The translations under genes and the position numbers were made by a program. The notes beneath the pieces are model-generated. The model had not been told where the DNA came from. It worked only from the letters and a program-made list of their open reading frames with translations, and searched no databases. A stretch of 64,000 nucleotides of DNA, from contig UQZH01000003.1 in NCBI GenBank assembly GCA_900545445.1, forward strand, positions 9,638-73,637, written 5' to 3'. How positions within the stretch are numbered: the stretch's first letter is position 1; each line of letters opens with the position of its first letter. Shown one piece after another: positions 5,916 through 44,140 of the stretch. The stretch comes from an uncultured Collinsella sp. (GTDB taxonomy: Bacteria; Actinomycetota; Coriobacteriia; Coriobacteriales; Coriobacteriaceae).

Positions 5916-7397
5916 CTAGTGCAGCTGCTTTGCGCGCTCCGACAGTCGATATTTACGGTTGCGGCTTGTCGCCGACGCCGTAGGTTCAAGCTCGCCCTGC
6001 GCGATGAGCGTATTGACGCGCGTCCTAACCTGGGAGACGGTGAGTCCCGTGCATTCTGCCAGTTCGCGCGTTCCCAACTCGTCATAGCGCTTGAGGGCCG
6101 CCATGATCAGGTCCCCGCCATGATCGACCTGCTCAACCTTCGCTCGGTAAAGGACAACCTTAAACCGGTCGAAACCCGGGCAAAACAACGGCTCGGCCAG
6201 ACCTTGCGCACGCATGGCATCGAGCATCATTGGAATGCCCGACCCGTTGCCTTCGGCAGAAGAGCCCGCGCCGTCGGGCAATGGGACAAGCGACATGAGC
6301 TTCACAAGCGTCGCATTGCGACATCGGGAGCTGCCGTCAAACAGGTTCTCGCGAGTCTTTCCTCCGTATAGGCCGCCGGGGTTCGTCACTTCGATACGGT
6401 CATCAAAGACGTCAACAGCGATCGACTGCCCACAGAACCGGTCTCCGTATTCTCGGTGGATTACGGCGTTGGCAATTGCCTCGCGCAGGACCTCCTCGGG
6501 AATCTCCAGCGAGTCGACACGCGAGACGCCTTTGATCATCGAGGTTCGTCGCAAATTCTTGGCGACCGCCGCGACGGCATCCGAGATCATTTCACCCAAC
6601 GTCCCCTCGCAGATCGTACGGTCCATGAACCTCAACGACCCCGCCGCGCCCTTCTGCGTTCCGGCATAGACCGCCACATCGATAAAGAGCTTGGGGTAGA
6701 ACTGCTGAGGATAGGCGCCCGCAACCAGGAGTCCGGCCTTAGTCACGTTGCCTTGGGAGTCGAGGAAATTCAGACGCTCCATCTTTGTCTTCTTGTCCGT
6801 CGCACCGTGCATCGCTCGAGGCGTCAACGAATAAGCACGCTCTATCGTGCGGTCGACCAGCGACTCGTCGAGATCGCCCACGCTCGCGCAGGACACCGCA
6901 TCGCGATCGCTAGGGCTCGTCCGTTCGTATGACGACAGCGCCAAAACCTCGGTCGACGAAAGCGGCACGTCTTTGTCATCGATGCGCTTGTAGCTACCGC
7001 CCTGGGCGCCCCGCTCTATGACATAACAAGGCTTGCTCGACGGGTCGAGCTCCTCGATCGTGATGACGAGAACAACGGTACCCCGAAGCTCCACGCGCTC
7101 AATGGTGTATTTGGGCGGATTGGCCAGCTTTCCGCGACCGCCGGCATCACCCATGCCCGCTACGAATTGGTTGAGCACCTTCTCGGTCTCAAAGTTCTCA
7201 ACCGGGACAAAGCCCGCGCGCTCGCTCACGCCGAGCACGATAATTCCGCCGGCAGTATTCGCGAATGCGCTAACCGTTTCCCATACGTCGCGAGAAAGCG
7301 TCGTGGCGCTCTCCTTGACCTCGACGTTAAGATCGTCCGAGCCCATGCGCCTTAAAGACTCGAGCAGACCGGTCAGCTCGTTTTCGTTCATCTGCAT
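5916..7397 (-). CDS. AlbA_2 (Schlafen-like) + HATPase_c_4 + C-terminal wHTH putative ATP-binding transcriptional regulator
   Basis: N-terminal divergent-AAA/AlbA_2 block (AFANTAGGIIVLGV), central GHKL-like block (NAVIHREYG...EVTNPGGL), C-terminal HTH (LAECTGLTVSQVRTRVNTL). GAAAGGA RBS. Confidence 0.75.
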   Translation of the reverse strand: MQMNENELTGLLESLRRMGSDDLNVEVKESATTLSRDVWETVSAFANTAGGIIVLGVSERAGFVPVENFETEKVLNQFVAGMGDAGGRGKLANPPKYTIERVELRGTVVLVITIEELDPSSKPCYVIERGAQGGSYKRIDDKDVPLSSTEVLALSSYERTSPSDRDAVSCASVGDLDESLVDRTIERAYSLTPRAMHGATDKKTKMERLNFLDSQGNVTKAGLLVAGAYPQQFYPKLFIDVAVYAGTQKGAAGSLRFMDRTICEGTLGEMISDAVAAVAKNLRRTSMIKGVSRVDSLEIPEEVLREAIANAVIHREYGDRFCGQSIAVDVFDDRIEVTNPGGLYGGKTRENLFDGSSRCRNATLVKLMSLVPLPDGAGSSAEGNGSGIPMMLDAMRAQGLAEPLFCPGFDRFKVVLYRAKVEQVDHGGDLIMAALKRYDELGTRELAECTGLTVSQVRTRVNTLIAQGELEPTASATSRNRKYRLSERAKQLH

Positions 7398-7435: not shown

Positions 7436-7690
7436 ATTTCCTTCGTCTCTCAGTTATCTCTCGTAATTATCTCTCATCTTACTGCTATCTCTCATATTAG
7501 AGATAATTGAGAGATGAAAGATAAGATGTCTGCCATCTGTTTCATGTAAACATGTTTTTGCTGGCAGAACAATCAGTATTGAGACAATACCATGATTGCT
7601 TGTCTCTTTGCTGCTCAGTTATCTCTCATATTTATCTCTCATCTTTCTGTTATCTCTCGTATTAGTGACGAATGAGAGATGAGAGATACG
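7436..7690. repeat. Two ~85-bp tandem elements, each with three direct TTATCTCTCRT boxes followed by inverted GAGAGATGA boxes (iteron-like array)
   Basis: Seen directly: unit 1 at ~7436-7527 and unit 2 at ~7604-7690, separated by ~80 bp. They sit in the promoter region of 5916..7397. Related motifs (CTCTTTGCTG, TCTATCTCTCATCT) recur at 17911-17962. Confidence 0.7.
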
Positions 7691-7821: not shown

Positions 7822-8478
7822 TTACGCCGCTGCGAACACTCCCAAGCCCGTTCCGATGATGCAAATCGCAAAGATGCCCAAGATGATCCAAATGGTCTTG
7901 ACGCCCTTTTTGTACAGGGCGACGCAGGCAAAGGTTGCCAGCAAGGGCAGCAGACCGGGGAAGATCGAATCGAACAGATCCTGCAGGACAATCTCCGAAC
8001 CACCCACGTCAAAGGTCAAAGCAGTGGACAGCGAGACCTGTGCCGCAATCATGGCGCCGATAACGGTCATTCCGAGGACACCGGCAGCATGCGTCATGCG
8101 AGACATAAGGTTGTTCTCTTCGGACTGCTGCAGGAACTTGGTTCCCAGGTCGTAACCCAGATGGGCTGCGACGATACGCGTTGCAAAGTTAATCACGGAG
8201 TAGAGAAGGAAGACGGAGACGGGAGGGACGAGCGCGACGGCAGTTGCCGTGCCCGTACCCGTAATGACGGCAAACGCGCAGCCAAGCACGCCGGAGGCAT
8301 AGACCTCGGGAGGAACCGCCGCGCCGACCATGATGGCGCCCATGAACATGGACTCCAAAGCAGCGCCGACGATAACGCCCTGCTGGACATCGCCAAGGAT
8401 CAAGCCGACAAACAGGCTCGTAAACAGCGGACGACCAAGCATCGTAATGCCAAATGCTTGCTCGTCCATAGACGCCAT
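7822..8478 (-). pseudogene. Orphan, N-terminally truncated PTS mannose-family IIC remnant
   Basis: Aligns to the IIC proteins at 12510..13295 and 36126..36920 but lacks ~12-15 N-terminal residues (first half-TM) and the acidic C-terminal tail. No RBS (CCTCCT antisense motif upstream) and no IID/IIA/IIB partners. It follows a terminator hairpin. Confidence 0.5.
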
Positions 8479-8597: not shown

Positions 8598-9632
8598 TTA
8601 GTAGTTCATCTGGTGATAGTAGCGACGCGTGGTGAGCGGGTGGTTGCGGACGTGCTCGAGATGGCAGCTCAGGCGCTCGGTGATGGTGTAGGTGACCATC
8701 GGGGAGACGATCTTGCGGAACTCGGGGTCGCTGAACGGCAGCTCGACCTCGGCGGTGTCGAACTTGTTCACGCGGACATGGACGCCCTTCTCGTCGGCGA
8801 GCATGTGGGTGAAGTTGTCCACGCGGTCCATGAGCTTGCGGGTGTCATCCTCGCCGTAGAGCATGATGAGGCTCGTGCCCTCCTCGCACAGCTCGATGGT
8901 GCCGTGGAAGAACTCGGCGGCGTGGATGGACTTGGTCTTGATCCACTGCATCTCCTCGAGGATGCACATGGCGTAGTCGTAGGCCTCGCCCCAGAGCATG
9001 CCGGAGCCGATCACCATGTGGTAGTCGGTGTCCTTGAAGTCCTCGGCCATGGCGGCGCAGCGCTCGTCCTGGGCGTCCTTGGCCTTGATGAGGTACGGGG
9101 CGATGTTGCCGAACTCCTCCATGAAGGTGTCGTACTTGGGGAAGGCGCCGGCGTTCTTGAGGAAGCGGGCGACCAGCGTGATCTGGTAGGTGTAGATGGC
9201 CTCGCACAGGACGTCGTCCTCGGCGAAGCTGAAGAACTTGTAGTCGGCGTACTCGGTGGCCGGGGTGTTGTCGTTGGAGACGTACATCAGCGTGCGGGCG
9301 CCCTGCTCCTGGCAGAACTTGGCGGCCTCGATGATCTCGGGGGTGGTGCCGGTACGGGTGGAGAAGACGCAGACCGAGTCCTTGTTGAAGGCCTTGGGCG
9401 GGCATGCGAGGAACTCGGCGGCGATCTCGCAGTGGACGTCGACGTCGGCCGTGGTGGTCTCGACCCAGTACTTCATCGGGAGCGTGTGGGCCCAGGTGCC
9501 GCCGCAGCCGATGAAGAAGATGTTGGAATAGCCCTGCTCGCAGACCTTGTCCACGGCAGCCTCAATCTGAGGACGGAGAGCGAGGGCATCGCTCACAACC
9601 TTCTCGTAACGAGGCTCATCGAAATTGAACAT
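8598..9632 (-). CDS. Double-SIS domain sugar-phosphate isomerase/deglycase (FrlB/AgaS/GlmS-C-like), copy 1
   Basis: Two SIS domains (FFIGCGGTWA..., MVIGSGMLWG...). 344 aa from MFNFDEP with a GAAGGGA RBS. Nucleotide-identical (1 mismatch) to 16303..17337. Confidence 0.8.
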   Translation of the reverse strand: MFNFDEPRYEKVVSDALALRPQIEAAVDKVCEQGYSNIFFIGCGGTWAHTLPMKYWVETTTADVDVHCEIAAEFLACPPKAFNKDSVCVFSTRTGTTPEIIEAAKFCQEQGARTLMYVSNDNTPATEYADYKFFSFAEDDVLCEAIYTYQITLVARFLKNAGAFPKYDTFMEEFGNIAPYLIKAKDAQDERCAAMAEDFKDTDYHMVIGSGMLWGEAYDYAMCILEEMQWIKTKSIHAAEFFHGTIELCEEGTSLIMLYGEDDTRKLMDRVDNFTHMLADEKGVHVRVNKFDTAEVELPFSDPEFRKIVSPMVTYTITERLSCHLEHVRNHPLTTRRYYHQMNY

Positions 9633-9730
9633 ATCTAATATCCCTTCGTTTAATAGAGTGAAATTCGTTTCAATTGACAACTTGTCATTTCACTACGTAT
9701 TAATACTTAATGACCTAAAAAAATACCTTT

Positions 9731-10633
9731 CTAGGAAATGGAAGCTTGGCCGTCTTTCATCTCGGCGAGTTTATGCTCGAATCCAAAGCCGCCGGGTTTA
9801 AGGCAATTCTTAGCTGAATAGTCAGCAGCGAATTCCATTGCATCCCGAATGATCTCCGCATCGAGCGGTTGCTTTTTACTCCAGCCATGCGAGAGACAGC
9901 TCACAACAAACGCAGTGATATACGAATCTCCCGCGCCCATGGTGTCAAGCGCATCTACGGGTCTTATATTTCCCTGGTACCATCGGGAACCGTCAAAGAA
10001 CACAGGCCCTGCAGATCCCCGTGTAGCAATCGTGTAGCGACAACCATGCTCTATGGCCCTCTTCAATAGAACTTGAATCTGTTGATCGCTCTCGCCGGAA
10101 CAGGAAAACAGACCAAGGGTTGTAGCAGGGCAAACAAGATCGAAATATGCGTCGGTTCGATACTTATCTTTAACGGAAAAGTCGTAAACCACCACAGCGG
10201 GAAGATCTTGAACTAGGTGCACATCATCCTGCAGCTTTGCATTGACGCTGGTAAAAACCGCATCGAATCCCTGAAGAAACTTGACATCAGAATCGTTGAT
10301 ATGGGTTTTGTGCGCCCAGCAAGCCCCCGTATCGTAACCAACTTCGACACGTTCACCGTTGTAAACATTTACATCGCAAGTCTTGGTTGTTGCTTTTTCA
10401 GGCATGCATGATTGCGAAAGGTCAACGTTCAGCGAAGAAAGGGCATCGGTGATTATTCGCCCTCCCAGGTCGTTGCCGATCTCCCCAATATACGCAGCCT
10501 GTGCGCCAAGCATGCTTGCATGGGCAGCGACGTTTACGGCATTGCCACCAGGATACATAACGCCTTTGTTGAGATAGCGATCAATAACGTTGTCACCAAT
10601 TGCTGCGATTTTCACCTCAACGCCTCCCATCAC
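9731..10633 (-). CDS. PfkB-family carbohydrate kinase (fructoselysine-6-kinase/ribokinase-like)
   Basis: GG...NVA N-terminal motif and DTMGAGDSY C-terminal motif typical of the PfkB/ribokinase family. Exact start (GTG 10633 or ATG 10630) uncertain. Confidence 0.8.
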   Translation of the reverse strand: MMGGVEVKIAAIGDNVIDRYLNKGVMYPGGNAVNVAAHASMLGAQAAYIGEIGNDLGGRIITDALSSLNVDLSQSCMPEKATTKTCDVNVYNGERVEVGYDTGACWAHKTHINDSDVKFLQGFDAVFTSVNAKLQDDVHLVQDLPAVVVYDFSVKDKYRTDAYFDLVCPATTLGLFSCSGESDQQIQVLLKRAIEHGCRYTIATRGSAGPVFFDGSRWYQGNIRPVDALDTMGAGDSYITAFVVSCLSHGWSKKQPLDAEIIRDAMEFAADYSAKNCLKPGGFGFEHKLAEMKDGQASIS

Positions 10634-10645
10634 GTACGGTCTTTA

Positions 10646-11644
10646 TTAGTACTCGACCTTGCGGTAATAACGGCGGATGTCGAGCGAATGGTCACGAATT
10701 TCCTCGAAATTCTTGCTCACACGCGAGAGAATGGCATTGAGCACCACCGGAGAAAGCATCCAGCGGAATTCGTCACTGATACCCGGCAACTCATAATCAT
10801 GTGTATCGAATACGGTGAAATCATCCGCATATTGCTTACAGAAGCGTGCAACGCGCTCATCAAGAGGCCTAGTCTGCGCCTCCGTCATTGCGAGCGCGAC
10901 GCAAACGCCCGGCTCAACAAGTTCGATAGTGCCATGGAAGAACTCAGGCGATGTAACGGATTTGGTGCGCAGCCATTGGGACTCCTCGAGCACACACATG
11001 GCAAACGAATACGTGGGGCCCCACAGATTGCCAGAACCAATCCAAATCTGATACGGATCGTCCTTGTGCTTCAGAGCATATGCGCGAGCCATCTCGTCAG
11101 CGTTCTTGCCGACGGAAACGAGAGCAGCGGGGAGATTCACAAGCTCATCAGCGAAGCGATCGTAGTCATCGAAAAAGCCCCTGTTCTTGAGAATCTTTCC
11201 AATCAGAAGGTACAGCACGAGCTCCATAGGACGGCCCTGCTTATAAATCACTCCATAATCGGAAAGTTCACCAAGCGGTGAACCGTCCACGCCAAGCGTA
11301 GAGACAATGGTGCAGCCTGCGTCTTTTGCCGCCTTTGCCGCCGCGACCGTCTCTTTGGTGTCGCCCGACTTGGACGCCATGAACGCCAAGGTCCCCTTAC
11401 CGATGCGCCGATTGCCAACCGTGAGGAAATCTGCCGAAACTTGGGACTGGACGGGAATATCGGACATAACAGAAACCATATAGTCAAACGGCTGCATCAT
11501 CGCAAGCGAGCCACCTGACGAGGTGAAGAAAATCGAATCGAAACCCTTTTCGCAAATTTCGTCAGCAATGCGTTCAATTTCGGCACGTTGATTGTAGATA
11601 TAAGCACCGTTATCGAGAATTGCCTGTTCATCAAATGAAACCAT
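10646..11644 (-). CDS. Double-SIS domain FrlB-like deglycase
   Basis: SIS motifs FFTSSGGS and IWIGSGNLWG; C-terminal RRYYRKVEY shared with the other SIS paralogs. Confidence 0.8.
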   Translation of the reverse strand: MVSFDEQAILDNGAYIYNQRAEIERIADEICEKGFDSIFFTSSGGSLAMMQPFDYMVSVMSDIPVQSQVSADFLTVGNRRIGKGTLAFMASKSGDTKETVAAAKAAKDAGCTIVSTLGVDGSPLGELSDYGVIYKQGRPMELVLYLLIGKILKNRGFFDDYDRFADELVNLPAALVSVGKNADEMARAYALKHKDDPYQIWIGSGNLWGPTYSFAMCVLEESQWLRTKSVTSPEFFHGTIELVEPGVCVALAMTEAQTRPLDERVARFCKQYADDFTVFDTHDYELPGISDEFRWMLSPVVLNAILSRVSKNFEEIRDHSLDIRRYYRKVEY

Positions 11645-11692
11645 GAGATATACCTTTCTAATTCAATTGGGCCAGACGGCGAAATCAACCAT

Positions 11693-12523
11693 TTAGATTG
11701 CAAACACTCCGAAGAAGGAGCCGACGATACCAACCGCCATGAGAATAACGAGAATCCAAGCAATCTTGACCTTGTGCTGGACGAGTTCGTAAACTCCAAG
11801 TGTCACAAGCAGCGGCAGCAGGCTCGGCATGATACCGTCGATGATGCTTTGGATAGTCTGCGCACTGTCGCCGGTACCGAGAGAACCAGCCACGCTGACC
11901 GATACAAGGTTGGGCACCATAGCGCCGATAACCATAAGACCGAGAATTGCAGCCCCCATAGTAAGCTTTGGCATAAGACCAGATTTCTCGATCTTGCTCA
12001 AGAAACTGGTTCCGAATCCATAGCCCCATTTAAGGCAGAACCAACGAATCAGATAATGCGGAACATTGAATACGACAAGGAAGAGAAGCGGGCCGAGAAT
12101 GTTACCCTGCATAGCAAGCGACACACCCAAGCCAGTGGCGATGACACGCAACGTTCCCCAGAACAGAGAGTCACCGATGCCGGCCAGCGGGCTCATAAGA
12201 GCGGCCTTTACGCTGTTGATGGAGGATTCGTCAAAATCCTCTTCGTTAGCGTTTGCCTCTTCCATCGCTGCCGAAATGCCCAGAATTAATGTTGAGACAT
12301 AAGGAGTGGTGTTGAAGAACTCCATGTGACGCTTAGCAGCAGCAGCCTGGTCATCCTTATTCTTATACACGCGACGAATGATGGGAAGCATGGAGAAGCA
12401 GTATCCCATGTGCTGCTGGCGCTCGTAGTTCCAGGAGTACTCCATCGTAAGCGAACGGAAAAATACCGATTTTAGATCACGCTTTGTAATCTTGTTGGAA
12501 CTGGTGTCATTAGAAGTCGTCAT
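11693..12523 (-). CDS. PTS mannose/fructose/sorbose family IID component
   Basis: IID hallmark WNYERQQHMGY and a membrane C-terminus. Start ATG overlaps the last codons of IIC (GATGACGAC), with a GGAAGGGAG RBS. Confidence 0.85.
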   Translation of the reverse strand: MTTSNDTSSNKITKRDLKSVFFRSLTMEYSWNYERQQHMGYCFSMLPIIRRVYKNKDDQAAAAKRHMEFFNTTPYVSTLILGISAAMEEANANEEDFDESSINSVKAALMSPLAGIGDSLFWGTLRVIATGLGVSLAMQGNILGPLLFLVVFNVPHYLIRWFCLKWGYGFGTSFLSKIEKSGLMPKLTMGAAILGLMVIGAMVPNLVSVSVAGSLGTGDSAQTIQSIIDGIMPSLLPLLVTLGVYELVQHKVKIAWILVILMAVGIVGSFFGVFAI

Positions 12524-13295
12524 CGTCGAAGCTCCCTTCCGAACTAAGCTGTGGCGTCTGAGCAATGAAGTTTGGCTGGACCACCACGAGGATTACTGCG
12601 AGGCAAAGCCCAATGATGGCAATACCAAGGATTGGAATGCTCATGTAGGCACAGAGCGCAAACCCGAGCACGAAGAAAATAGCAGTCTGCTTGTTGACAA
12701 TCATTGAAGCGAGCAGTGCAATGCCGAGCGCAGGGATGAATCCACCCGCAATAACCAGGCCGTTACTTACAAACTCGGGAATTGCGTTAAGCACCGCGTT
12801 CATAACCGGCGTTCCGAGATAGAAAGCAAGGGAGCACACGAAAAAGCGAGGAAGCGATTTGACGATGAATCCACCAAGCAGATGCATCCGCTCCATACCT
12901 TTGAGGTCGCCCTTTGCCACACAGTCGTCCGCTTTATGGACGAAAAACGGCATCACGATCAGCGTAAGCGCGTTATCAATGATGAGATAAAGCGACGCAA
13001 TCGGGAAAGCGAGCGTCAGCGCAACTTCAGCGCCTTGACCCGTCGAAATTGCAAAGGCAGTGCCCAAAATACCACCGGTGATAACGTCAGGCGGAACGGC
13101 CGCCCCGATGGTAACCGATCCAATGAACACCATTTCAAGCGTGGCGCCGACAATAATGCCCGTCTGCAAATCACCCATCACAAGACCGATGAGGACGCCC
13201 GTGACAATCGGGCGAGAAGCAAGGCAAGTGCCAAGTGCCCACTCAAATGTCACGCACATTGCGACGAGGCCGATAAGGATCGCTTGAGTCAACAT
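12510..13295 (-). CDS. PTS mannose-family IIC component
   Basis: 261-aa polytopic membrane protein with the IIC core GDLQTGIIVGATLEMVFIG...AAVPPDV. Confidence 0.85.
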   Translation of the reverse strand: MLTQAILIGLVAMCVTFEWALGTCLASRPIVTGVLIGLVMGDLQTGIIVGATLEMVFIGSVTIGAAVPPDVITGGILGTAFAISTGQGAEVALTLAFPIASLYLIIDNALTLIVMPFFVHKADDCVAKGDLKGMERMHLLGGFIVKSLPRFFVCSLAFYLGTPVMNAVLNAIPEFVSNGLVIAGGFIPALGIALLASMIVNKQTAIFFVLGFALCAYMSIPILGIAIIGLCLAVILVVVQPNFIAQTPQLSSEGSFDDDDF

Positions 13296-13322
13296 GAGGG
13301 ATCCCCTTTCTATTGTATGTGC

Positions 13323-13784
13323 TTAAATCAAAATCTTCTCGTCTCTAGGTACCTGCCTGATCTCCACCTCGATTCCGGCATCACTGAGCTCATGTAGAAG
13401 CTCCACGTCGCGATCGGTAGCGAAAACCGTTGAAGATAGGCGTACATCTGCACCCTCACGCGGCTTCGTTCCTCCAATGTTGATATGCTCGATTTCGCTG
13501 TAGCCCTTTGCCAGGCGGTAAGCATCTTCGATGCTTTCAACGACAATGAACAAACGGTACTTATCGGTCACACCGCTCCTAAGAGCCTCGATAGAATCAT
13601 CGACCGATTTGATAACCAATTTGACGCCTGCCGGACGTGCCAGCTTAAGCGTCGTCTTGCGCACGTCATCTTTCACAACCGCATCGCAGGCAATCAAAAT
13701 GCAATTGGTGTCAAGCTCTTGCGTCCAAGTCATGGCAACCTGACCATGAAGCAAGCGATGGTCAACTCTCAACAGCTTAATCAT
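13323..13784 (-). CDS. PTS mannose-family IIB component
   Basis: MIKLLRVDHRLLHGQVA (phospho-His region of IIB-Man). GAAAGGAAC RBS; the ORF track gives a longer N-terminus. Confidence 0.8.
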   Translation of the reverse strand: MIKLLRVDHRLLHGQVAMTWTQELDTNCILIACDAVVKDDVRKTTLKLARPAGVKLVIKSVDDSIEALRSGVTDKYRLFIVVESIEDAYRLAKGYSEIEHINIGGTKPREGADVRLSSTVFATDRDVELLHELSDAGIEVEIRQVPRDEKILI

Positions 13785-13797
13785 CTTTGTTCCTTTC

Positions 13798-14214
13798 TCA
13801 AAAATCCTCGTCTTCTTCTGCCGAATTTGGCAGCGAACATAGGCATGTGCCCTTTTGGCGGACACTTGAAACCAATGCAGCGAGCTCGGCGTCATCAAGT
13901 GTGCTCAATTTCGAAAACACTTCGAGCACTAGTGGTAGCGACATGCCGGCAATGAGTCTTAGAGAATCGTCACCCAACCTTTCCATAAAAGCGTTATTCA
14001 CTGACCCACCATAGACATCAGTGATGACAATCCACTGGTCTGCTGGGTCGCGAGAACGGTCCCAAAAATCTATCAACTCGTTTACATCCATCGTGTCCTC
14101 ATCGACATATGCGCATAGCACCTTAACGCGAGGATCTTCACCGCAAAATAGCTGGAGCGTTTCACGCATCGCTCTAGCAAGTGGCCCATGGCTGGCCAAG
14201 AGCAACTTCCTCAT
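13798..14214 (-). CDS. PTS mannose-family IIA component
   Basis: MRKLLLASHGPLA... IIA-Man fold signature. First gene of the operon. Confidence 0.8.
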   Translation of the reverse strand: MRKLLLASHGPLARAMRETLQLFCGEDPRVKVLCAYVDEDTMDVNELIDFWDRSRDPADQWIVITDVYGGSVNNAFMERLGDDSLRLIAGMSLPLVLEVFSKLSTLDDAELAALVSSVRQKGTCLCSLPNSAEEDEDF

Positions 14215-14351
14215 TTATCTCCCAATCTCAGTCAATCATCTGTTAATAGAACGTTATATTTTGTATTGTTATCTACAGTATCCTCGAAACTTTCGCTTTG
14301 TCAAGACAGATCAATCAAGCTTCCTAAGCGGTAATAATTCGCCCGTAAACG

Positions 14352-14386
14352 GCAAAAAAACGCCCCTTTGTCGGGGCGTTTTCAAT
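14352..14386. terminator. Rho-independent terminator AAACGCCCC-TTTGT-CGGGGCGTTTT
   Basis: A-run/hairpin/T-run between the GntR gene (ends 14429) and the PTS IIA start (14214). Confidence 0.7.
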
Positions 14387-14428
14387 CTCTTGTTATTCGG
14401 TTAAGAAAGATCCGGGGTTTGGCTTTCG

Positions 14429-15133
14429 CTAGAGATAAAACTTTAAGCGCTCAGTGCAGTACACCTGCCGCGAAATAAACAATGGCACTCCCTGCGCGCT
14501 GCAACGCTTATCTACAAATAATAAAAGGGCAGATCCCGGCTTTACATTCAAATGTTCTGCCTCGTAAGCACTTGCAAAGCACACCTGCAACGTTCGCTCG
14601 TTATTGCCAAGTTCGATATGGCGTCTTCCCAGCACCTCAAGTAGAGAACCCGATAAATCTTCATGTTCCAAAAAGGCCAGAGAAGGAGTGTAGCTATTGG
14701 TTTCCAACATCGTTGGCACGCCATCGACTAAGCGCAAACGTCTAGTCTGAAGAATATTCTCGTCCTCCTGGACCTGAAGAAAACGCACGTCGCGCAGCGT
14801 AGGATAAATCCAAGCTACTTCGAGCACTACGGTAGAAGGCTTTTTATTTTCTTGAATGCAGGAATGGGTGAAGCTTTCCTGGTCATCGGCTGCATAGGCA
14901 TTGCGTGTCGTGGTAACAAAAGTCCCTTTCCCTCGCGTGCGCTCAACGATATCGGCGTCCTCTAGTTCCTTGATTGCCGATCGAACGGTAATACGACTAA
15001 CGCCATATTCCTCCATAAGCTCCGTCTCAGTAGGAAGCTTATCCCCTTCGCTATATACGCCACTTTCTATTCGACTCACAAGATCGTGAACGATCTGCTT
15101 ATACAATGGAACAGCGCTCTCCACTTTAACCAT
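14429..15133 (-). CDS. GntR/HutC-family transcriptional regulator (HTH + UTRA)
   Basis: N-terminal PLYKQI...LPTETELMEEYGVSRITVRSAIKEL GntR HTH; C-terminal UTRA-like region. Confidence 0.8.
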   Translation of the reverse strand: MVKVESAVPLYKQIVHDLVSRIESGVYSEGDKLPTETELMEEYGVSRITVRSAIKELEDADIVERTRGKGTFVTTTRNAYAADDQESFTHSCIQENKKPSTVVLEVAWIYPTLRDVRFLQVQEDENILQTRRLRLVDGVPTMLETNSYTPSLAFLEHEDLSGSLLEVLGRRHIELGNNERTLQVCFASAYEAEHLNVKPGSALLLFVDKRCSAQGVPLFISRQVYCTERLKFYL

Positions 15134-15141
15134 TATTCAAC

Positions 15142-15930
15142 CTATTGCTTTCTGCACTCAACGGCTTCAAGTCCCTGCCAGTTGATGCCGAGTTGATTAG
15201 CCTTAATCGAAAAGAAGTATTTGAAATAGTCACCCAACATCACCTGCTTAGTAAAGTGCACTGGCTTACCAGTGCTCATATAAACGGTCTCACTCAATAT
15301 AAACATCGCAGCTTCTCCTGCGATGTTAAGGATGCGCTTCTCCTCATCCGTAGCAAGCCCTGCTTCAAGCACAATAGACGGGAAACAATTATCCTCTAGT
15401 CGCAGCCCCGTCTCTCTCTCAATCGTTTCATAAAGTGATGCGTTCTCCATATCGACACCCAGTAAAAACCCGAAGTTCTTTACTGGAAGATAAATATGTT
15501 CAATCATTGCATTTATGTGATTAATTGACCTCACGCGTTTGAGGTAAACCGCAGATTCATTCTCTTCCATTCGCAAATGACGACGGACGGCAACGGGCGG
15601 CTCGACCTCCTGAAGAGCGAGAACACGAGACGAGGTTTCGATATTATTTTCATGGCAAAAATAAGTGAAACCCTTAAACGTGCTCAAGCTCGAGACGATT
15701 TTAGGCTGCCGGATAAATGTGCCTTTGCCATGACGCGTATCAAGCACGTCGTCATCCACAAGAGTTTGAATTGCCTTCCGTATCGTCGCACGGCTAACCT
15801 CGTATTCTTCGCAAAAACCATTTTCGCTAGGCAACACGCCACTTTCGGAAAACTCGCCCATCTCAATACGGCGGCGCAAATCATCAGCTACTTGTACATA
15901 TAGCGGCACAGCACTAGTCGGGTTAATCAT
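15142..15930 (-). CDS. GntR/HutC-family transcriptional regulator
   Basis: PLYVQVADDL...LPSENGFCEEYEVSRATIRKAIQTL. Tandem with 14429..15133. Confidence 0.8.
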   Translation of the reverse strand: MINPTSAVPLYVQVADDLRRRIEMGEFSESGVLPSENGFCEEYEVSRATIRKAIQTLVDDDVLDTRHGKGTFIRQPKIVSSLSTFKGFTYFCHENNIETSSRVLALQEVEPPVAVRRHLRMEENESAVYLKRVRSINHINAMIEHIYLPVKNFGFLLGVDMENASLYETIERETGLRLEDNCFPSIVLEAGLATDEEKRILNIAGEAAMFILSETVYMSTGKPVHFTKQVMLGDYFKYFFSIKANQLGINWQGLEAVECRKQ

Positions 15931-16302
15931 AACGTTCTCCGTATAACATTCTATGAAACTTCTATACGTTATAAGATAACCTATTACGTATTATTTTGAA
16001 AGAAATAGACGGTTCAATCTTATTTTTGAACCGTCTACAATATCAAACACTCCATATGAAGGTGTCGAATGCCACTTGTGGCGCAAACAAGAGGGGCATT
16101 TGGCAAAAATGCCCCATTTCGCCTTGAAGTCACTACCGTGAAATGCCAACGAGCCGCATGGTCGAGTCCAAGCAAATACGACCTCAAGCGGCCAGCTACG
16201 GCATGGCTCCCTAGAACGAGACTGCGACATTTGTTTGCATTGTTTTACGAACGCAACATAACGAATTATTTCCGAGCAAAATAACGACCGCTGAAAGCTG
16301 CT

Positions 16303-17337
16303 TTAGTAGTTCATCTGGTGGTAGTAGCGACGCGTGGTGAGCGGGTGGTTGCGGACGTGCTCGAGATGGCAGCTCAGGCGCTCGGTGATGGTGTAGGTGA
16401 CCATCGGGGAGACGATCTTGCGGAACTCGGGGTCGCTGAACGGCAGCTCGACCTCGGCGGTGTCGAACTTGTTCACGCGGACATGGACGCCCTTCTCGTC
16501 GGCGAGCATGTGGGTGAAGTTGTCCACGCGGTCCATGAGCTTGCGGGTGTCATCCTCGCCGTAGAGCATGATGAGGCTCGTGCCCTCCTCGCACAGCTCG
16601 ATGGTGCCGTGGAAGAACTCGGCGGCGTGGATGGACTTGGTCTTGATCCACTGCATCTCCTCGAGGATGCACATGGCGTAGTCGTAGGCCTCGCCCCAGA
16701 GCATGCCGGAGCCGATCACCATGTGGTAGTCGGTGTCCTTGAAGTCCTCGGCCATGGCGGCGCAGCGCTCGTCCTGGGCGTCCTTGGCCTTGATGAGGTA
16801 CGGGGCGATGTTGCCGAACTCCTCCATGAAGGTGTCGTACTTGGGGAAGGCGCCGGCGTTCTTGAGGAAGCGGGCGACCAGCGTGATCTGGTAGGTGTAG
16901 ATGGCCTCGCACAGGACGTCGTCCTCGGCGAAGCTGAAGAACTTGTAGTCGGCGTACTCGGTGGCCGGGGTGTTGTCGTTGGAGACGTACATCAGCGTGC
17001 GGGCGCCCTGCTCCTGGCAGAACTTGGCGGCCTCGATGATCTCGGGGGTGGTGCCGGTACGGGTGGAGAAGACGCAGACCGAGTCCTTGTTGAAGGCCTT
17101 GGGCGGGCATGCGAGGAACTCGGCGGCGATCTCGCAGTGGACGTCGACGTCGGCCGTGGTGGTCTCGACCCAGTACTTCATCGGGAGCGTGTGGGCCCAG
17201 GTGCCGCCGCAGCCGATGAAGAAGATGTTGGAATAGCCCTGCTCGCAGACCTTGTCCACGGCAGCCTCAATCTGAGGACGGAGAGCGAGGGCATCGCTCA
17301 CAACCTTCTCGTAACGAGGCTCATCGAAATTGAACAT
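16303..17337 (-). CDS. Double-SIS domain FrlB/AgaS-like protein, copy 2 (identical to 8598..9632)
   Basis: Identical protein. AGGAGTAAGGG RBS. Followed 3' by a hairpin/T-run at ~16011-16050. Confidence 0.8.
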   Translation of the reverse strand: MFNFDEPRYEKVVSDALALRPQIEAAVDKVCEQGYSNIFFIGCGGTWAHTLPMKYWVETTTADVDVHCEIAAEFLACPPKAFNKDSVCVFSTRTGTTPEIIEAAKFCQEQGARTLMYVSNDNTPATEYADYKFFSFAEDDVLCEAIYTYQITLVARFLKNAGAFPKYDTFMEEFGNIAPYLIKAKDAQDERCAAMAEDFKDTDYHMVIGSGMLWGEAYDYAMCILEEMQWIKTKSIHAAEFFHGTIELCEEGTSLIMLYGEDDTRKLMDRVDNFTHMLADEKGVHVRVNKFDTAEVELPFSDPEFRKIVSPMVTYTITERLSCHLEHVRNHPLTTRRYYHQMNY

Positions 17338-18188
17338 CCCTTACTCCTAACTCACTTAGATGAACCCTTCATTCATCCCATAACGTTATAATACTTTATA
17401 TAACTAACTATGCAAGTATTATTTTGATTCTGCTCTTTCATCAAGCCCCTTAAAACAACAATCGGCATTGTTGGACACAGCGTGCAAGTTCATTGAACGA
17501 TTCAATATGCATCGTCCCTAGTTAAATGACGTCTTATGCAAATACCTTTAATCCGCTTGGGGCCGACGAATCTTTTGACTGTCCGCAGAAGCTTTCCCGG
17601 AATTCCCCATGGATAGACGCACCGGCAATCGCTTTGTTATCTGGCTTATTGCGCATTGCCGGACCGTCTGGGAGAAAGTGCAATCTACCGCGTGGTCAAC
17701 TAGCGTTTCATCGGAATCGACCGCATCCGCGCCAAATACTAAATCGCAATCGTTGTAACTCGCCCGATCATATGACGGCAATTTCTCGCCTTAAAAATGA
17801 GCACGAAATAAGGGGGCAGCTGTTTGCAATTTGCTTTATTCGTAAGTGTTTTTACTGAAAAAACAATCACCAACCAAACAGCACTATTAACAGCACTATT
17901 AATTGTTTGGCTCTTTGCTGTACAGCCATCTTTCGTATACGCCTCTCGTCTATCTCTCATCTCACGGTTGGAGACGAAAGGTGTGCGGGAGTGGATAATT
18001 GGACGGCATTTGGGCCTGCGACGGATTATTTCGTCCGAAAATCCACGCTCATTTGGCGGGACACGCGGGGCCTATGCCCAATCCGCTGGCATCGTCTTCA
18101 GTTCGCCGCAGAGCCGCGGCCCCATATGGGTATACTCTCGGAGATTCGACTCGATTCGCCCCCGCTGGGGCGTCAAAGGAGACTGTAT

Positions 18189-21280: not shown

Positions 21281-21296
21281 GCCGCAGTCTGCCGGT

Positions 21297-21439
21297 TTGT
21301 CTCGATCTGTAACGCTAGGACGGCAATATTGGCTCCAGATGTTACAAATCGAGACGTTTTCGGATGACGCCGGCCCTTTGTCTCAATCTGTAACATCTAA
21401 GTCCAATTTTGCCGAGTTACTGTTACAGATCGAGACAAA
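21297..21439. repeat. Four copies of the 17-bp box TTGTCTCGATCTGTAAC in alternating orientation (two consecutive 17-bp-arm inverted repeats)
   Basis: Boxes at 21297-21313 (+), 21341-21356 (-), 21377-21394 (+) and 21422-21439 (-), upstream of hicAB. Confidence 0.7.
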
Positions 21440-21563
21440 CCGCCGCAGACACCCGCCCCACCAGCAAAACCCCCACGAAGGGGCAGGTGCCTTTGCGTTG
21501 GTTCGAACACTTGTTCTATACGTACACATGTTCTATAGTAGGGGTGCTTGCATCGGACTTAAA

Positions 21564-22952: not shown

Positions 22953-23072
22953 ATGAGCGTGGAAAATCTCCCACTTTGAGCCCCTTACGAGCCAAAAGTG
23001 GGAGATTATCCACGCTCAACCATTGCGCGTCCAGATTTCCACGCTCGTCCGTCCGGATTTCCACGCTCGTGC
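22953..23072. repeat. Direct repeat DR-A (~120 bp): 24-bp-arm palindrome GAGCGTGGAWAATCTCCC..TTTG/CAAAAGTGGGAGATTATCCACGCTC followed by 2x GTCCRRAWWTCCACGCTCGT
   Basis: Seen directly. ~85% identical to DR-B at 24353-24472, same orientation. The TCCACGCTC box occurs four times (1 inverted, 3 direct). Confidence 0.7.
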
Positions 23073-24352: not shown

Positions 24353-24472
24353 ATGAGCGTGGATAATCTCCCGTTTTGAGCCTAGTTTCAAGCCAAAAGT
24401 GGGAGATTATCCACGCTCGATTTGTAAACGTCCGAAAATCCACGCTCGTGTGTCCGAAAATCCACGCTCGTC
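24353..24472. repeat. Direct repeat DR-B (partner of DR-A)
   Basis: Same palindrome + triple-box architecture; lies between the DUF559 gene start and the metA stop. Confidence 0.7.
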
Positions 24473-27006: not shown

Positions 27007-27975
27007 CTAGTACTGCTCGACGCCCATGTAGCGACGAACCTCGGGGCTGTGGTCGAAGACCTTACCGCGGGCGGCGCGCAGCTCGCAGCTCATGTTGTAG
27101 AAGAAGATCGGCTCCAGGAACGAACGCACGCTGGCAGGCACTTCGCCCACGCCGTACTCGAGCGCATCGAGCACCATAATCGTATCGGTGTGCGTGTTGA
27201 GGAACGCAAGCGCGCGCTCCTCCATGGGGCGACACTCGCCCGCGCCAAGCTGCACAAAGTAGAACACGCCGGGCTCGGTAGCCTCGAAGGGGCCGTGGAA
27301 GTACTCGCCGGAGTGAATATAGCAGCAGTGCTGCCACTGCATCTCCATGAGCGAGCAAATTGCCATGGCGTAGGTCTGGCTAAAGTTGGGTCCGGAGCCC
27401 AGGATATAGAAGAACTTGTGCTGCTGGCAGAGCTCGGCAAAGCGATCGCCCAGCTCGGCGTTGACCTTCTCACGGGCAGCGGGCAGCAGCGCATCCATCT
27501 GCTTAAGGCCGGCGTACATGTCGGCGAGTGCCTCGTAGCCCTCCTGCTGGTCGAGCAGCTCGGCGGCGATCAGAGCGCCGATACCCTGAGGCACCTCGGC
27601 CTGCGGCACGCCTTCGCCCCACGGATAGACCCAGGTGGCCCACTTGCCGTTGTCGATCTTGGAGCCCTCGCAGTCGGTCATGGCGACGACCTCGGCGCCG
27701 GCAGCCAACGCCATCTCGCAGCCGTCGACGACCTCCTGCGTGTTGCCGCTGTGGCTGCATGCAATAACGAGAGACTTCTCGCCAAGGCTCTTGGGGGCCA
27801 TCAGGCAAAACTCGCGTGCCGTGTAGACCGTCGAGGAAAACGTGGTGGCCTCGCGCTTGAGCAGCTCGTTGGCCGGCATCAGGTCGATCATCGAACCGCC
27901 GCAGGCGATCCAAAAGACGTTCTCGATCTTGCCCTTGCGCTCGATGATTTCCTGAACCAGATCATGTGCGTTCAT
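27007..27975 (-). CDS. Double-SIS domain FrlB/AgaS-like protein
   Basis: SIS motifs FWIACGGS and FYILGSGPNF; conserved C-terminal RRYMGVEQY. Confidence 0.8.
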   Translation of the reverse strand: MNAHDLVQEIIERKGKIENVFWIACGGSMIDLMPANELLKREATTFSSTVYTAREFCLMAPKSLGEKSLVIACSHSGNTQEVVDGCEMALAAGAEVVAMTDCEGSKIDNGKWATWVYPWGEGVPQAEVPQGIGALIAAELLDQQEGYEALADMYAGLKQMDALLPAAREKVNAELGDRFAELCQQHKFFYILGSGPNFSQTYAMAICSLMEMQWQHCCYIHSGEYFHGPFEATEPGVFYFVQLGAGECRPMEERALAFLNTHTDTIMVLDALEYGVGEVPASVRSFLEPIFFYNMSCELRAARGKVFDHSPEVRRYMGVEQY

Positions 27976-31028: not shown

Positions 31029-31163
31029 GGTTGAGCAAAAGTCAGCGAAAACGCCCCTAAGCGAGCAAGGTGACGTGAAAGAGGAGGGAAGCGTACTTTG
31101 GTACGCGACCGACGATTGAACGTCAGATTGCCGCTTAGGGGCGTTTGCAGCGTCGAGCCGTTA
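31029..31163. repeat. 135-bp repeated 3' element R1 (outer stem GCGAAAACGCCCCTAAGCG/CGCTTAGGGGCGTTTGC enclosing GAGGAGGGAAGCGTAC...)
   Basis: ~85% identical to 44006-44140 (R2). Each lies immediately 3' of a minus-strand gene stop (GntR, mfd). Confidence 0.65.
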
Positions 31164-44005: not shown

Positions 44006-44140
44006 GTTGAGCATAAGTAAGCGAAAACGTTCCATTTGTGGCAAGGTGGCCCGAAGGAGGAGGGAAGCGTACTTGCGTACGCGACCGACGAGTGAGGGTC
44101 AGATTGCCCAAATGGGGCGTTTGCAGCGTCGACCCGTTAG
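44006..44140. repeat. 135-bp repeated 3' element R2 (partner of 31029-31163)
   Basis: GGTTGAGCATAAGTAAGCGAAAACG...GGGGCGTTTGCAGCGTCGACCCGTTAG; ends at the mfd stop codon. Confidence 0.65.

Follow-up and report, generated by a model that had tools for sequence, protein, structure and literature searches.

Two near-identical copies of a predicted FrlB-family deglycase gene, bounded by start and stop codon, enclose a phosphotransferase operon in Collinsella and show signs of concerted evolution

In Salmonella and E. coli the genes tufA and tufB are near-identical coding copies with unrelated flanks, their identity being confined to the coding sequence (CDS) and maintained by RecA-dependent gene conversion (Paulsson et al. 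2017, PMC5485169); for the Salmonella tuf genes a model with conversion tracts that extend to the end of homology has been fitted experimentally (PMC5485169). Concerted evolution of prokaryotic paralogs (Wang and Chen 2018, PMC6053082) and homogenisation of rRNA operons (PMC8022953) likewise leave the paralogs of one genome closer to each other than to their orthologs in other genomes. Here we describe a gene pair of this kind in a stretch of 64,000 nt from an uncultured Collinsella sp. (contig UQZH01000003.1, assembly GCA_900545445.1), referred to below as the window. The gene, here called R, encodes a predicted SIS deglycase resembling FrlB, and its two copies lie on either side of an operon, Y. 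Unlike the tuf copies, which are far apart, inverted, ancient and essential, the R copies are direct repeats 6.7 kb apart around an accessory operon, are polymorphic for presence and absence in the population and can loop this operon out. In contrast to the paralog and rRNA studies, the time-scale lies within a species complex and not in hundreds of millions of years, and R is an accessory catabolic enzyme gene, not a member of a core complex. Overall we consider it likely that two operon types recombined through R and that gene conversion has acted on the copies since. The two copies are:

8598..9632, minus strand: R copy 1, FrlB-like SIS deglycase gene of 344 amino acids (aa); closes a Y-type operon and retains the ancestral downstream flank (Z)
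16303..17337, minus strand: R copy 2, CDS as in copy 1 except for one synonymous difference at 16321; retains 87 bp of the ancestral upstream flank

Comparison of the window with itself showed that 1034 of 1035 positions are equal between 8598-9632 and 16303-17337 (offset 7705 bp). The sole mismatch, A at 8616 versus G at 16321 (GGTGATAG versus GGTGGTAG), falls on CDS position 1017, a third codon position, where the exchange of TAT and TAC (Tyr) is synonymous; the two encoded proteins are identical over all 344 aa. Identity spans, on the minus strand, the A of the ATG through the last A of the TAA. As the first base beyond either end already differs and the 150-nt flanks match at random level only, the limits of identity are exactly the ATG and the TAA. 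An earlier note on this DNA, made from the letters of the window alone, had pointed out the near-identity with one differing nucleotide and its restriction to start and stop codons between unrelated flanks, both of which our comparisons of the repeat, its end bases and its flanks bore out. The same applies to the described context, with copy 1 at the end of the PTS operon and copy 2 upstream of two GntR genes; in our annotation copy 1 follows a PfkB gene. The R pair is the only long near-identical repeat within the window, and a 1035-bp repeat cannot have arisen by chance. The G+C content is 0.589 for the window, 0.62 for R and about 0.50 for the intervening 6.7 kb, and the G+C content at third codon positions (GC3) of R, 0.94, is the highest among all open reading frames (ORFs) of the window, with values of 0.49-0.60 in Y. 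Three further SIS paralogs (near 27283, 34375 and 39659) show about 70-72% identity to R, in a conserved 64-nt stretch only; they are not homogenised with R and form an internal contrast to the pair.

The exact R protein is listed in 5,610 blocks of a public collection, where the best contigs carry two copies and come from independent projects. A scan with the PfkB protein over one genome per GTDB species placed the source organism in the aerofaciens complex of Collinsella and yielded dozens of loci with the arrangement R-Y-R, and a look-up of SIS332, a second SIS gene within Y, added further contigs of 2.21 Mb and 216 kb. De-duplication left 47 distinct assemblies with R-Y-R, and the contigs among them reach 2.33, 2.26 and 2.21 Mb. 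The junctions are equal across all 47, whereas the flanking M16 peptidase gene (pepM16) differs by about 5% among them. Numerous contigs from short reads, 6.6-7.0 kb long, hold just Y plus a few tens of R bases at either end, and contigs bearing SIS332 (4,292 blocks) show a size peak at 5-10 kb, as is expected when a twofold repeat around Y fragments de Bruijn assembly. The duplication is real, and misassembly is excluded as its cause.

For the 47 two-copy units we compared the interior of R, defined as CDS positions 112-986. There are 39 interior haplotypes, with a mean of 8.1 interior differences between genomes and identity in 1.8% of between-genome pairs, whereas a genome's own two copies show no interior difference in 46 of the 47 cases. 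In each genome the strain-specific synonymous single-nucleotide polymorphisms (SNPs) occur in the two copies alike, as illustrated by positions 228, 261, 645 and 987 in L003 and 165, 210, 216, 333 and 390 in L006 (L numbers denote loci of the survey). Apart from L152, the differences found within genomes fall into the ranges 8-111 and 987-1035, with 1011, 1017 and 1029 as the most frequent sites, and the assignment of these edge alleles to the copies flips between genomes. Differences confined to the edges are what conversion would leave if its tracts can begin at any point of the repeat and run on to the end of homology. The long-contig and isolate genomes (window, L003/L144 with 2.33 Mb, L031 with 2.26 Mb, L151 with 2.21 Mb, L149, L050, L010/L148) carry copies that are distinguished by 0-3 sites, always at ≤111 or ≥987; between these genomes there are 1-10 interior differences, and each such variant is found in both copies. 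The sequence comparison thus supports a concerted evolution of the R pair by gene conversion confined to the CDS, which was one of two origins put forward in the earlier note. The lone exception, L152, carries 15 interior differences in a block from 390 to 960, its upstream copy having alleles of the type found in the single-copy form A described below; it may represent a homogenisation part-way after import of a divergent allele, or a strain-mixture artefact.

The order of the locus on the minus strand is U666, up87, R copy 2, Ya, the Y genes, Yb, R copy 1 and Z, with the M16 peptidase gene before U666 on the opposite strand. Apart from the R copies the following features were assigned, where EIIA to EIID denote enzyme II components of the phosphotransferase system (PTS):

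17425..18090, no strand assigned: U666, composite non-coding segment of 666 bp in place of the GntR237-EIIA-EIIB genes of form A; 77-nt dispersed repeat at about 17902-17978
17338..17424, minus strand: up87, ancestral upstream region of R, common to the single-copy forms A and B; palindrome ATAACGTTAT and ribosome-binding site
15931..16302, minus strand: Ya, 372-bp junction segment 3' of the copy 2 stop codon; carries a pair of terminator-like hairpins, beyond which a promoter region containing ATAACGT motifs precedes GntR262
15142..15930, minus strand: GntR262, GntR/UTRA regulator of 262 aa
14429..15133, minus strand: GntR234, GntR/UTRA regulator of 234 aa
13798..14214, minus strand: PTS mannose-family EIIA
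13323..13784, minus strand: PTS mannose-family EIIB
12510..13295, minus strand: PTS mannose-family EIIC
11693..12523, minus strand: PTS mannose-family EIID
10646..11644, minus strand: SIS332, another SIS deglycase-like gene, diverged from the R family (about 36% identity at the aa level)
9731..10630, minus strand: PfkB-family kinase, FrlD-like (under the equivalog cutoff)
9633..9730, minus strand: Yb, 98-bp AT-rich intergenic segment upstream of copy 1; palindrome TGACAAGTTGTCA
7822..8478, minus strand: Z remnant, EIIC N-terminus fused to EIID C-terminus by a 926-bp deletion; rest of the ancestral type-1 PTS operon downstream of R

Single-copy loci reveal how these segments belong together. 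In our survey of genome and metagenome contigs about 40 contigs have form A (G-up87-R-Z), for example L005 with the order peptidase, GntR237-EIIA-EIIB, R, EIIC-EIID. When L005 was aligned to the window, R with its 87 bp upstream fitted copy 2, while R with the downstream EIIC region fitted copy 1. The flanks of one gene are thus split over both copies, giving the topology up-R-insert-R-down. Ancient paralogs that later converged are ruled out by this division of the flanks of a single ancestral gene. Classification of the R flanks by k-mer matching at about 150 loci showed that each R copy has either up87 or Yb upstream and either Ya or Z downstream. In two Lachnospiraceae loci (L054, L056) an R ortholog (72-73% aa identity) immediately follows PfkB and ends a Y-like operon. 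A contig from a divergent member of the Coriobacteriia (L063) has the order Y'-R'-Z', with R' being 92% identical at the aa and 87% at the nt level and the Y genes about 70-73% identical, and L064 has the layout EIIA-EIIB-R-EIIC-EIID. These layouts indicate that R is a shared, unusually conserved gene of two operon types. Inter-lineage alignments to copy 2 begin at the ATG and finish at the stop codon. To judge from the split flanks and the operon layouts, the exact boundaries of R mark where homology between the two operon types ends, and not the borders of a duplicated segment.

We propose that a resident type-1 operon (GntR-EIIA-EIIB-R-EIIC-EIID) was joined to an incoming type-2 operon (GntR-GntR-EIIA-EIIB-EIIC-EIID-SIS332-PfkB-R) through homologous recombination inside R. 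The likeliest route would be a single-crossover, Campbell-type integration of a putatively circularised type-2 operon, with up87-R-(terminators/promoter-Y)-R-EIIC/EIID as the product. If the CDS was the only homology between the parents, the repeat would run from ATG to stop codon, and the succession in Ya of two terminator-like hairpins and a promoter region would result from the joining of an operon end to an operon start. The locus resembles a Campbell-type integrate in its order flank-R-insert-R-flank, with the native 87 bp upstream at copy 2 and the native EIIC region downstream at copy 1, and in that excision by R x R recombination restores a single copy (form B, see below). It differs in that no vector, plasmid or circular intermediate was detected for the Collinsella unit, and in that the homologous segment is a whole natural gene of two operon types and not a cloned fragment. 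After integration, gene conversion of the RecA type between the direct repeats, presumably with participation of mismatch repair, would hold the copies identical: a new mutation in one copy would either be erased or be copied to the other, and sites near the ends would be homogenised least, as conversion tracts stop where homology ends. Reciprocal recombination between the copies would loop out Y together with one copy.

The population contains several forms of the locus. Form B (X-U666-up87-R-Z), which is the predicted R x R loop-out product or else an empty site, was found in six contigs (L070, L080, L115, L122, L100, L084), and the two-copy form C of the window in more than 40; one two-copy contig, L118, has the G context. 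Single and double copies in related genomes, a comparison raised in the earlier note, are thus both present (forms A and B versus form C). Four loci (L060, L062, L099, L135) are independent deletion derivatives that have kept a 3' fragment of PfkB, Yb, R and Z, and together with L061 they account for at least four independent deletions of copy 2 and most of Y. Their right-hand breakpoints are clustered within about 60 bp of PfkB or inside Yb, which may mean that a promoter for copy 1 must be retained. Yb is putatively a promoter or operator region upstream of copy 1. It occurs in two haplogroups of about 87% identity (L043-L050, L085, L105 and L137-L139 versus the others), while the neighboring PfkB and R sequences are 98-100% identical, so that the divergence is sharply local to Yb. 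The arrangement Yb-R-Ya, the junction of a circle or of a tandem array, is present in five contigs, one of them 7702 bp long compared to the 7705 bp of the unit; assembly-graph cycles or insertion sequence (IS) elements suffice to explain them, and we do not take them as support for circles. The longest, L138, was considered as a circular or relocated R-Y unit and ruled out, as its structure results from an IS3 element inserted in Y near 14370 together with assembler paths that run through the repeats. A seam in Ya at about position 215 was likewise ruled out as the joint of a circle, since the breaks in L049 and L108 and the insert in L103 trace to IS200/IS605 at the terminator hairpin. The latter element (Y1 transposase) lies just past the Ya terminator hairpin in L103 (11253-11997), with another beside Z in L010 (12042-12500), and an IS3-family element is located between GntR234 and EIIA in L138 (1894-3303 and 11009-11261). 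These IS200 and IS3 copies are sporadic and occur in single contigs, and they explain several odd contig ends.

Pairwise divergence over 30 aligned two-copy genomes is 0.4-1.0% for the Y genes and 0.8% for R, but 5.4% for the peptidase gene, 5.0% for U666 and 4.5% for Z. Within 50 bp of the copy 1 stop codon it steps from about 1-2.7% to about 5%. This difference between module and flanks points to a spread or exchange of the R-Y-R module among lineages much later than the divergence of the flanks, with recombination end-points in or at R. A role of R as a conserved homology arm for module exchange fits these data, and they are compatible with a cassette that excises and re-integrates; R may even act as a recombinase-free attachment site by which the 7.7-kb operon cassette moves between lineages.

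Of the other explanations, an assembly artefact, i.e. a collapsed or chimeric repeat with only one R copy in the genome, had been raised in the earlier note. Near-identical 1-kb repeats are a classic source of misassembly, and the Yb-R-Ya contigs show that R is indeed traversed wrongly in some metagenomes. R-Y-R recurs, however, across independent projects and on contigs of 2.2-2.3 Mb, both ends of the short-read Y contigs lie within R, SNPs near the edges are linked in phase to distinct flanks, and the single-copy forms A and B assemble otherwise and coexist in the population; we regard the probability of an artefact as negligible. The other origin named in that note, a very recent, strain-specific duplication of exactly the CDS with copies identical for want of divergence time, would agree with one difference per 1035 bp, but it is extremely improbable and did not hold against the survey: the same junctions are shared by 47 assemblies from many Collinsella lineages with pepM16 about 5% apart, strain-specific synonymous SNPs sit in both copies of every genome, the ancestral flanks are divided between the copies, and 39 interior haplotypes show that the other assemblies are not one clone. 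Another objection accepts the duplication but attributes the apparent concerted evolution to short-read collapse and consensus polishing, so that the copies may in fact differ internally. A de Bruijn assembler solves an X-R-Y-R-Z loop with one collapsed R node, in which only SNPs within about one k-mer of the edges are phased. Such a single node yields identical interiors, all observed differences lie within about one k-mer (≤111 nt) of an edge, and L152 with its 15 interior sites shows that interior differences can exist. Yet L152 equally shows that the pipelines are able to report such differences, and the pattern is kept in the probably long-read contigs L003, L031 and L151 as well as in L149 and the window, with 1-10 interior sites between them. 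We therefore consider this explanation very unlikely.

A further possibility is that R-Y is a recombinase-free mobile cassette, which leaves as a 7.7-kb circle by R x R recombination, is transferred and re-integrates at a resident R, so that copy identity and low Y diversity would reflect recent repeated re-integration and not long-term conversion. This would be in line with the diversity of 0.4-1.9% within R-Y-R versus 4.5-5.4% in the flanks and the sharp jump at the copy 1 stop codon, with the existence of form B, with the occurrence of both single R and R-Y-R downstream of either context, G or U, and with L118 copy 2, whose alleles are A-type up to position 534 and C-type from 561 on. On the other hand, re-integration would leave the copies unlike at the sites where incoming and resident alleles differ (about 8), so conversion would still be required; the low diversity can also be explained by recombination with R as a conserved arm, or by selection; and no circle or vehicle was found in the contig survey or among plasmids and phages. 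The allele mosaics of L118 and L152 are suggestive of crossovers in R, but both are metagenome contigs, and inter-strain chimeras give an equal picture. The eight Y genes (regulators, PTS components, SIS proteins and kinase) include no recombinase or transposase, and there are no repeats at the junctions. On balance we judge the cassette as the sole explanation unlikely.

Several observations weigh against our own account of recombination between two operon types followed by conversion. Most assemblies are of short-read origin, and firm support for the concerted pattern comes from about seven long-contig or isolate genomes, the long-read origin of the megabase contigs being deduced from their size alone. 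As a collapsed R node forces identical interiors, 46 of 47 overstates the independent evidence, and short-read phasing alone yields a pattern of edge-only differences. The founding event is deduced. No non-circular donor was found in which R is followed by the 5' part of Ya, a segment seen only in its canonical position, and the R-Y unit matches none of the plasmids and phages searched. R' in L063 precedes Z-like sequence and not a terminator, and hence L063 is not a simple donor. Finally, orthologs of 83-87% nt identity depart from R at 6-9 of its first 50 nt, so that identity up to the ATG requires either near-identical parents or conversion that reaches the edge. The last 21 nt are identical even in these orthologs, and the boundary on the stop side would be exact for nearly any pair of homologs.

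Regarding its function, R aligns with Salmonella FrlB (PDB 8GLR) over its full length (residues 1-344, E 1e-55). The catalytic residues Glu224 and His240 described for the Salmonella enzyme (PMC10285752) are kept, the Glu in the motif ILEEMQW and the His in EFFHG. R does not reach the NCBIfam FrlB equivalog cutoff (NF008481; 67.6 versus 430 bits), nor does the PfkB kinase reach the FrlD cutoff (145 versus 247 bits). From this we class R as a predicted FrlB-family deglycase, a family relative and not an equivalog, and, as its score lies far below the cutoff, assign no substrate. The Y operon probably serves the uptake and deglycation of Amadori compounds. It shares with the frl systems of E. 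coli, Salmonella and B. subtilis an FrlB-type SIS deglycase with catalytic Glu and His, an FrlD-like PfkB kinase and GntR (FrlR-like) regulators, and with gfrABCDEF of Salmonella the combination of a mannose-family PTS with two SIS deglycases. Unlike gfr, the Collinsella locus appears to be regulated by GntR proteins and not by sigma-54 and GfrR, and it differs from both systems in the doubling of a deglycase gene and in scores far under the FrlB and FrlD equivalog cutoffs. The motif ATAMCGTW is enriched in the window (11 matches versus 2.8 expected) and is located upstream of copy 2, GntR262 and EIIA, which suggests that these genes belong to one regulon. The EIIA ORF is whole in the window (13798-14214), yet annotated in few public assemblies (L010/L148, L063, L064); elsewhere it is missed by gene callers, leaving an apparent gap of 645 bp in most annotations.

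On the Z side, the 926-bp deletion has the same breakpoints in most two-copy genomes, while EIIC and EIID are intact in L003, L016, L042, L045, L050, L051, L146 and L150; it looks like decay of the type-1 PTS following loss of EIIA and EIIB. U666 is made up of an X-proximal ancestral piece, the dispersed 77-nt repeat and unmatched sequence. Downstream of Z two 75-nt direct repeats (7449-7523 and 7614-7688, 87% identical) are rich in TATCTCTC/GAGAGATA, and the 77-nt element within U666 (about 17902-17978) is 73% identical to them in the same orientation, so a short dispersed repeat brackets the entire locus. Similar short repeats are found between the peptidase gene and GntR237 in form A loci, and these elements may be of the repetitive extragenic palindromic (REP) or miniature inverted-repeat transposable element (MITE) type. 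Beyond Z (window positions 1 to about 7400; equivalents in L001-L010 and L143-L152) the sequence is hypervariable between strains, with an SLFN_AlbA_2/HATPase_c_4 gene at 5916-7397 followed by alternative gene sets (HNH_2; DNA methylase plus MutH; PilZ plus unknowns), and looks like a defence island. Further short repeats of the window apart from R are a 99-nt pair (31065-31163 and 44041-44139, 85%), an 86-nt pair with internal ATTTCCACGCTCGT sub-repeats (22985-23070 and 24386-24471, 78%) and a 63-nt inverted repeat (21293-21355 and 21380-21442, 81%) unrelated to the R pair.

The one-copy and two-copy states differ in GC3, which is 0.938 ± 0.010 in two-copy alleles (n=98), 0.889 ± 0.011 in form A (n=40), 0.923 in form B (n=6) and 0.78-0.79 in outgroups. 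The majority alleles of forms A and C differ at 19 sites, at 18 of which form A has A/T and form C G/C, and when polarised with L063 and L064 seven of eight resolvable changes are GC-to-AT on the form A branch. That GC-biased gene conversion in the two-copy state explains this contrast is a tentative and rather doubtful proposal; if true, intragenomic conversion would purge GC-to-AT mutations in the two-copy state only. We do not accept the asymmetry as firm proof, because a gene with a GC3 of about 0.94 has hardly any synonymous mutations open to it other than GC-to-AT ones, and the asymmetry would follow just as well from relaxed codon selection or from a long stem branch of form A. The coexistence of one-copy and two-copy states nevertheless offers a tractable test of GC-biased conversion in bacteria.

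The R pair is a well-documented case of a known process, the concerted evolution of duplicate genes, on a Campbell-type insertion-duplication topology. The population data indicate that a conserved catabolic gene of two operon types can serve as the homology arm by which operons are stitched together. Conversion would then keep the repeats identical up to the limits of homology, and CDS-exact duplicates are explained without recourse to engineering or misassembly. At this locus the repeat breaks short-read assemblies of Collinsella and can yield chimeric contigs, with consequences for work on the pangenome and on individual strains of this very common inhabitant of the gut. Whether a strain has the Y operon or lacks it may add to differences among strains in the use of processed-food compounds.

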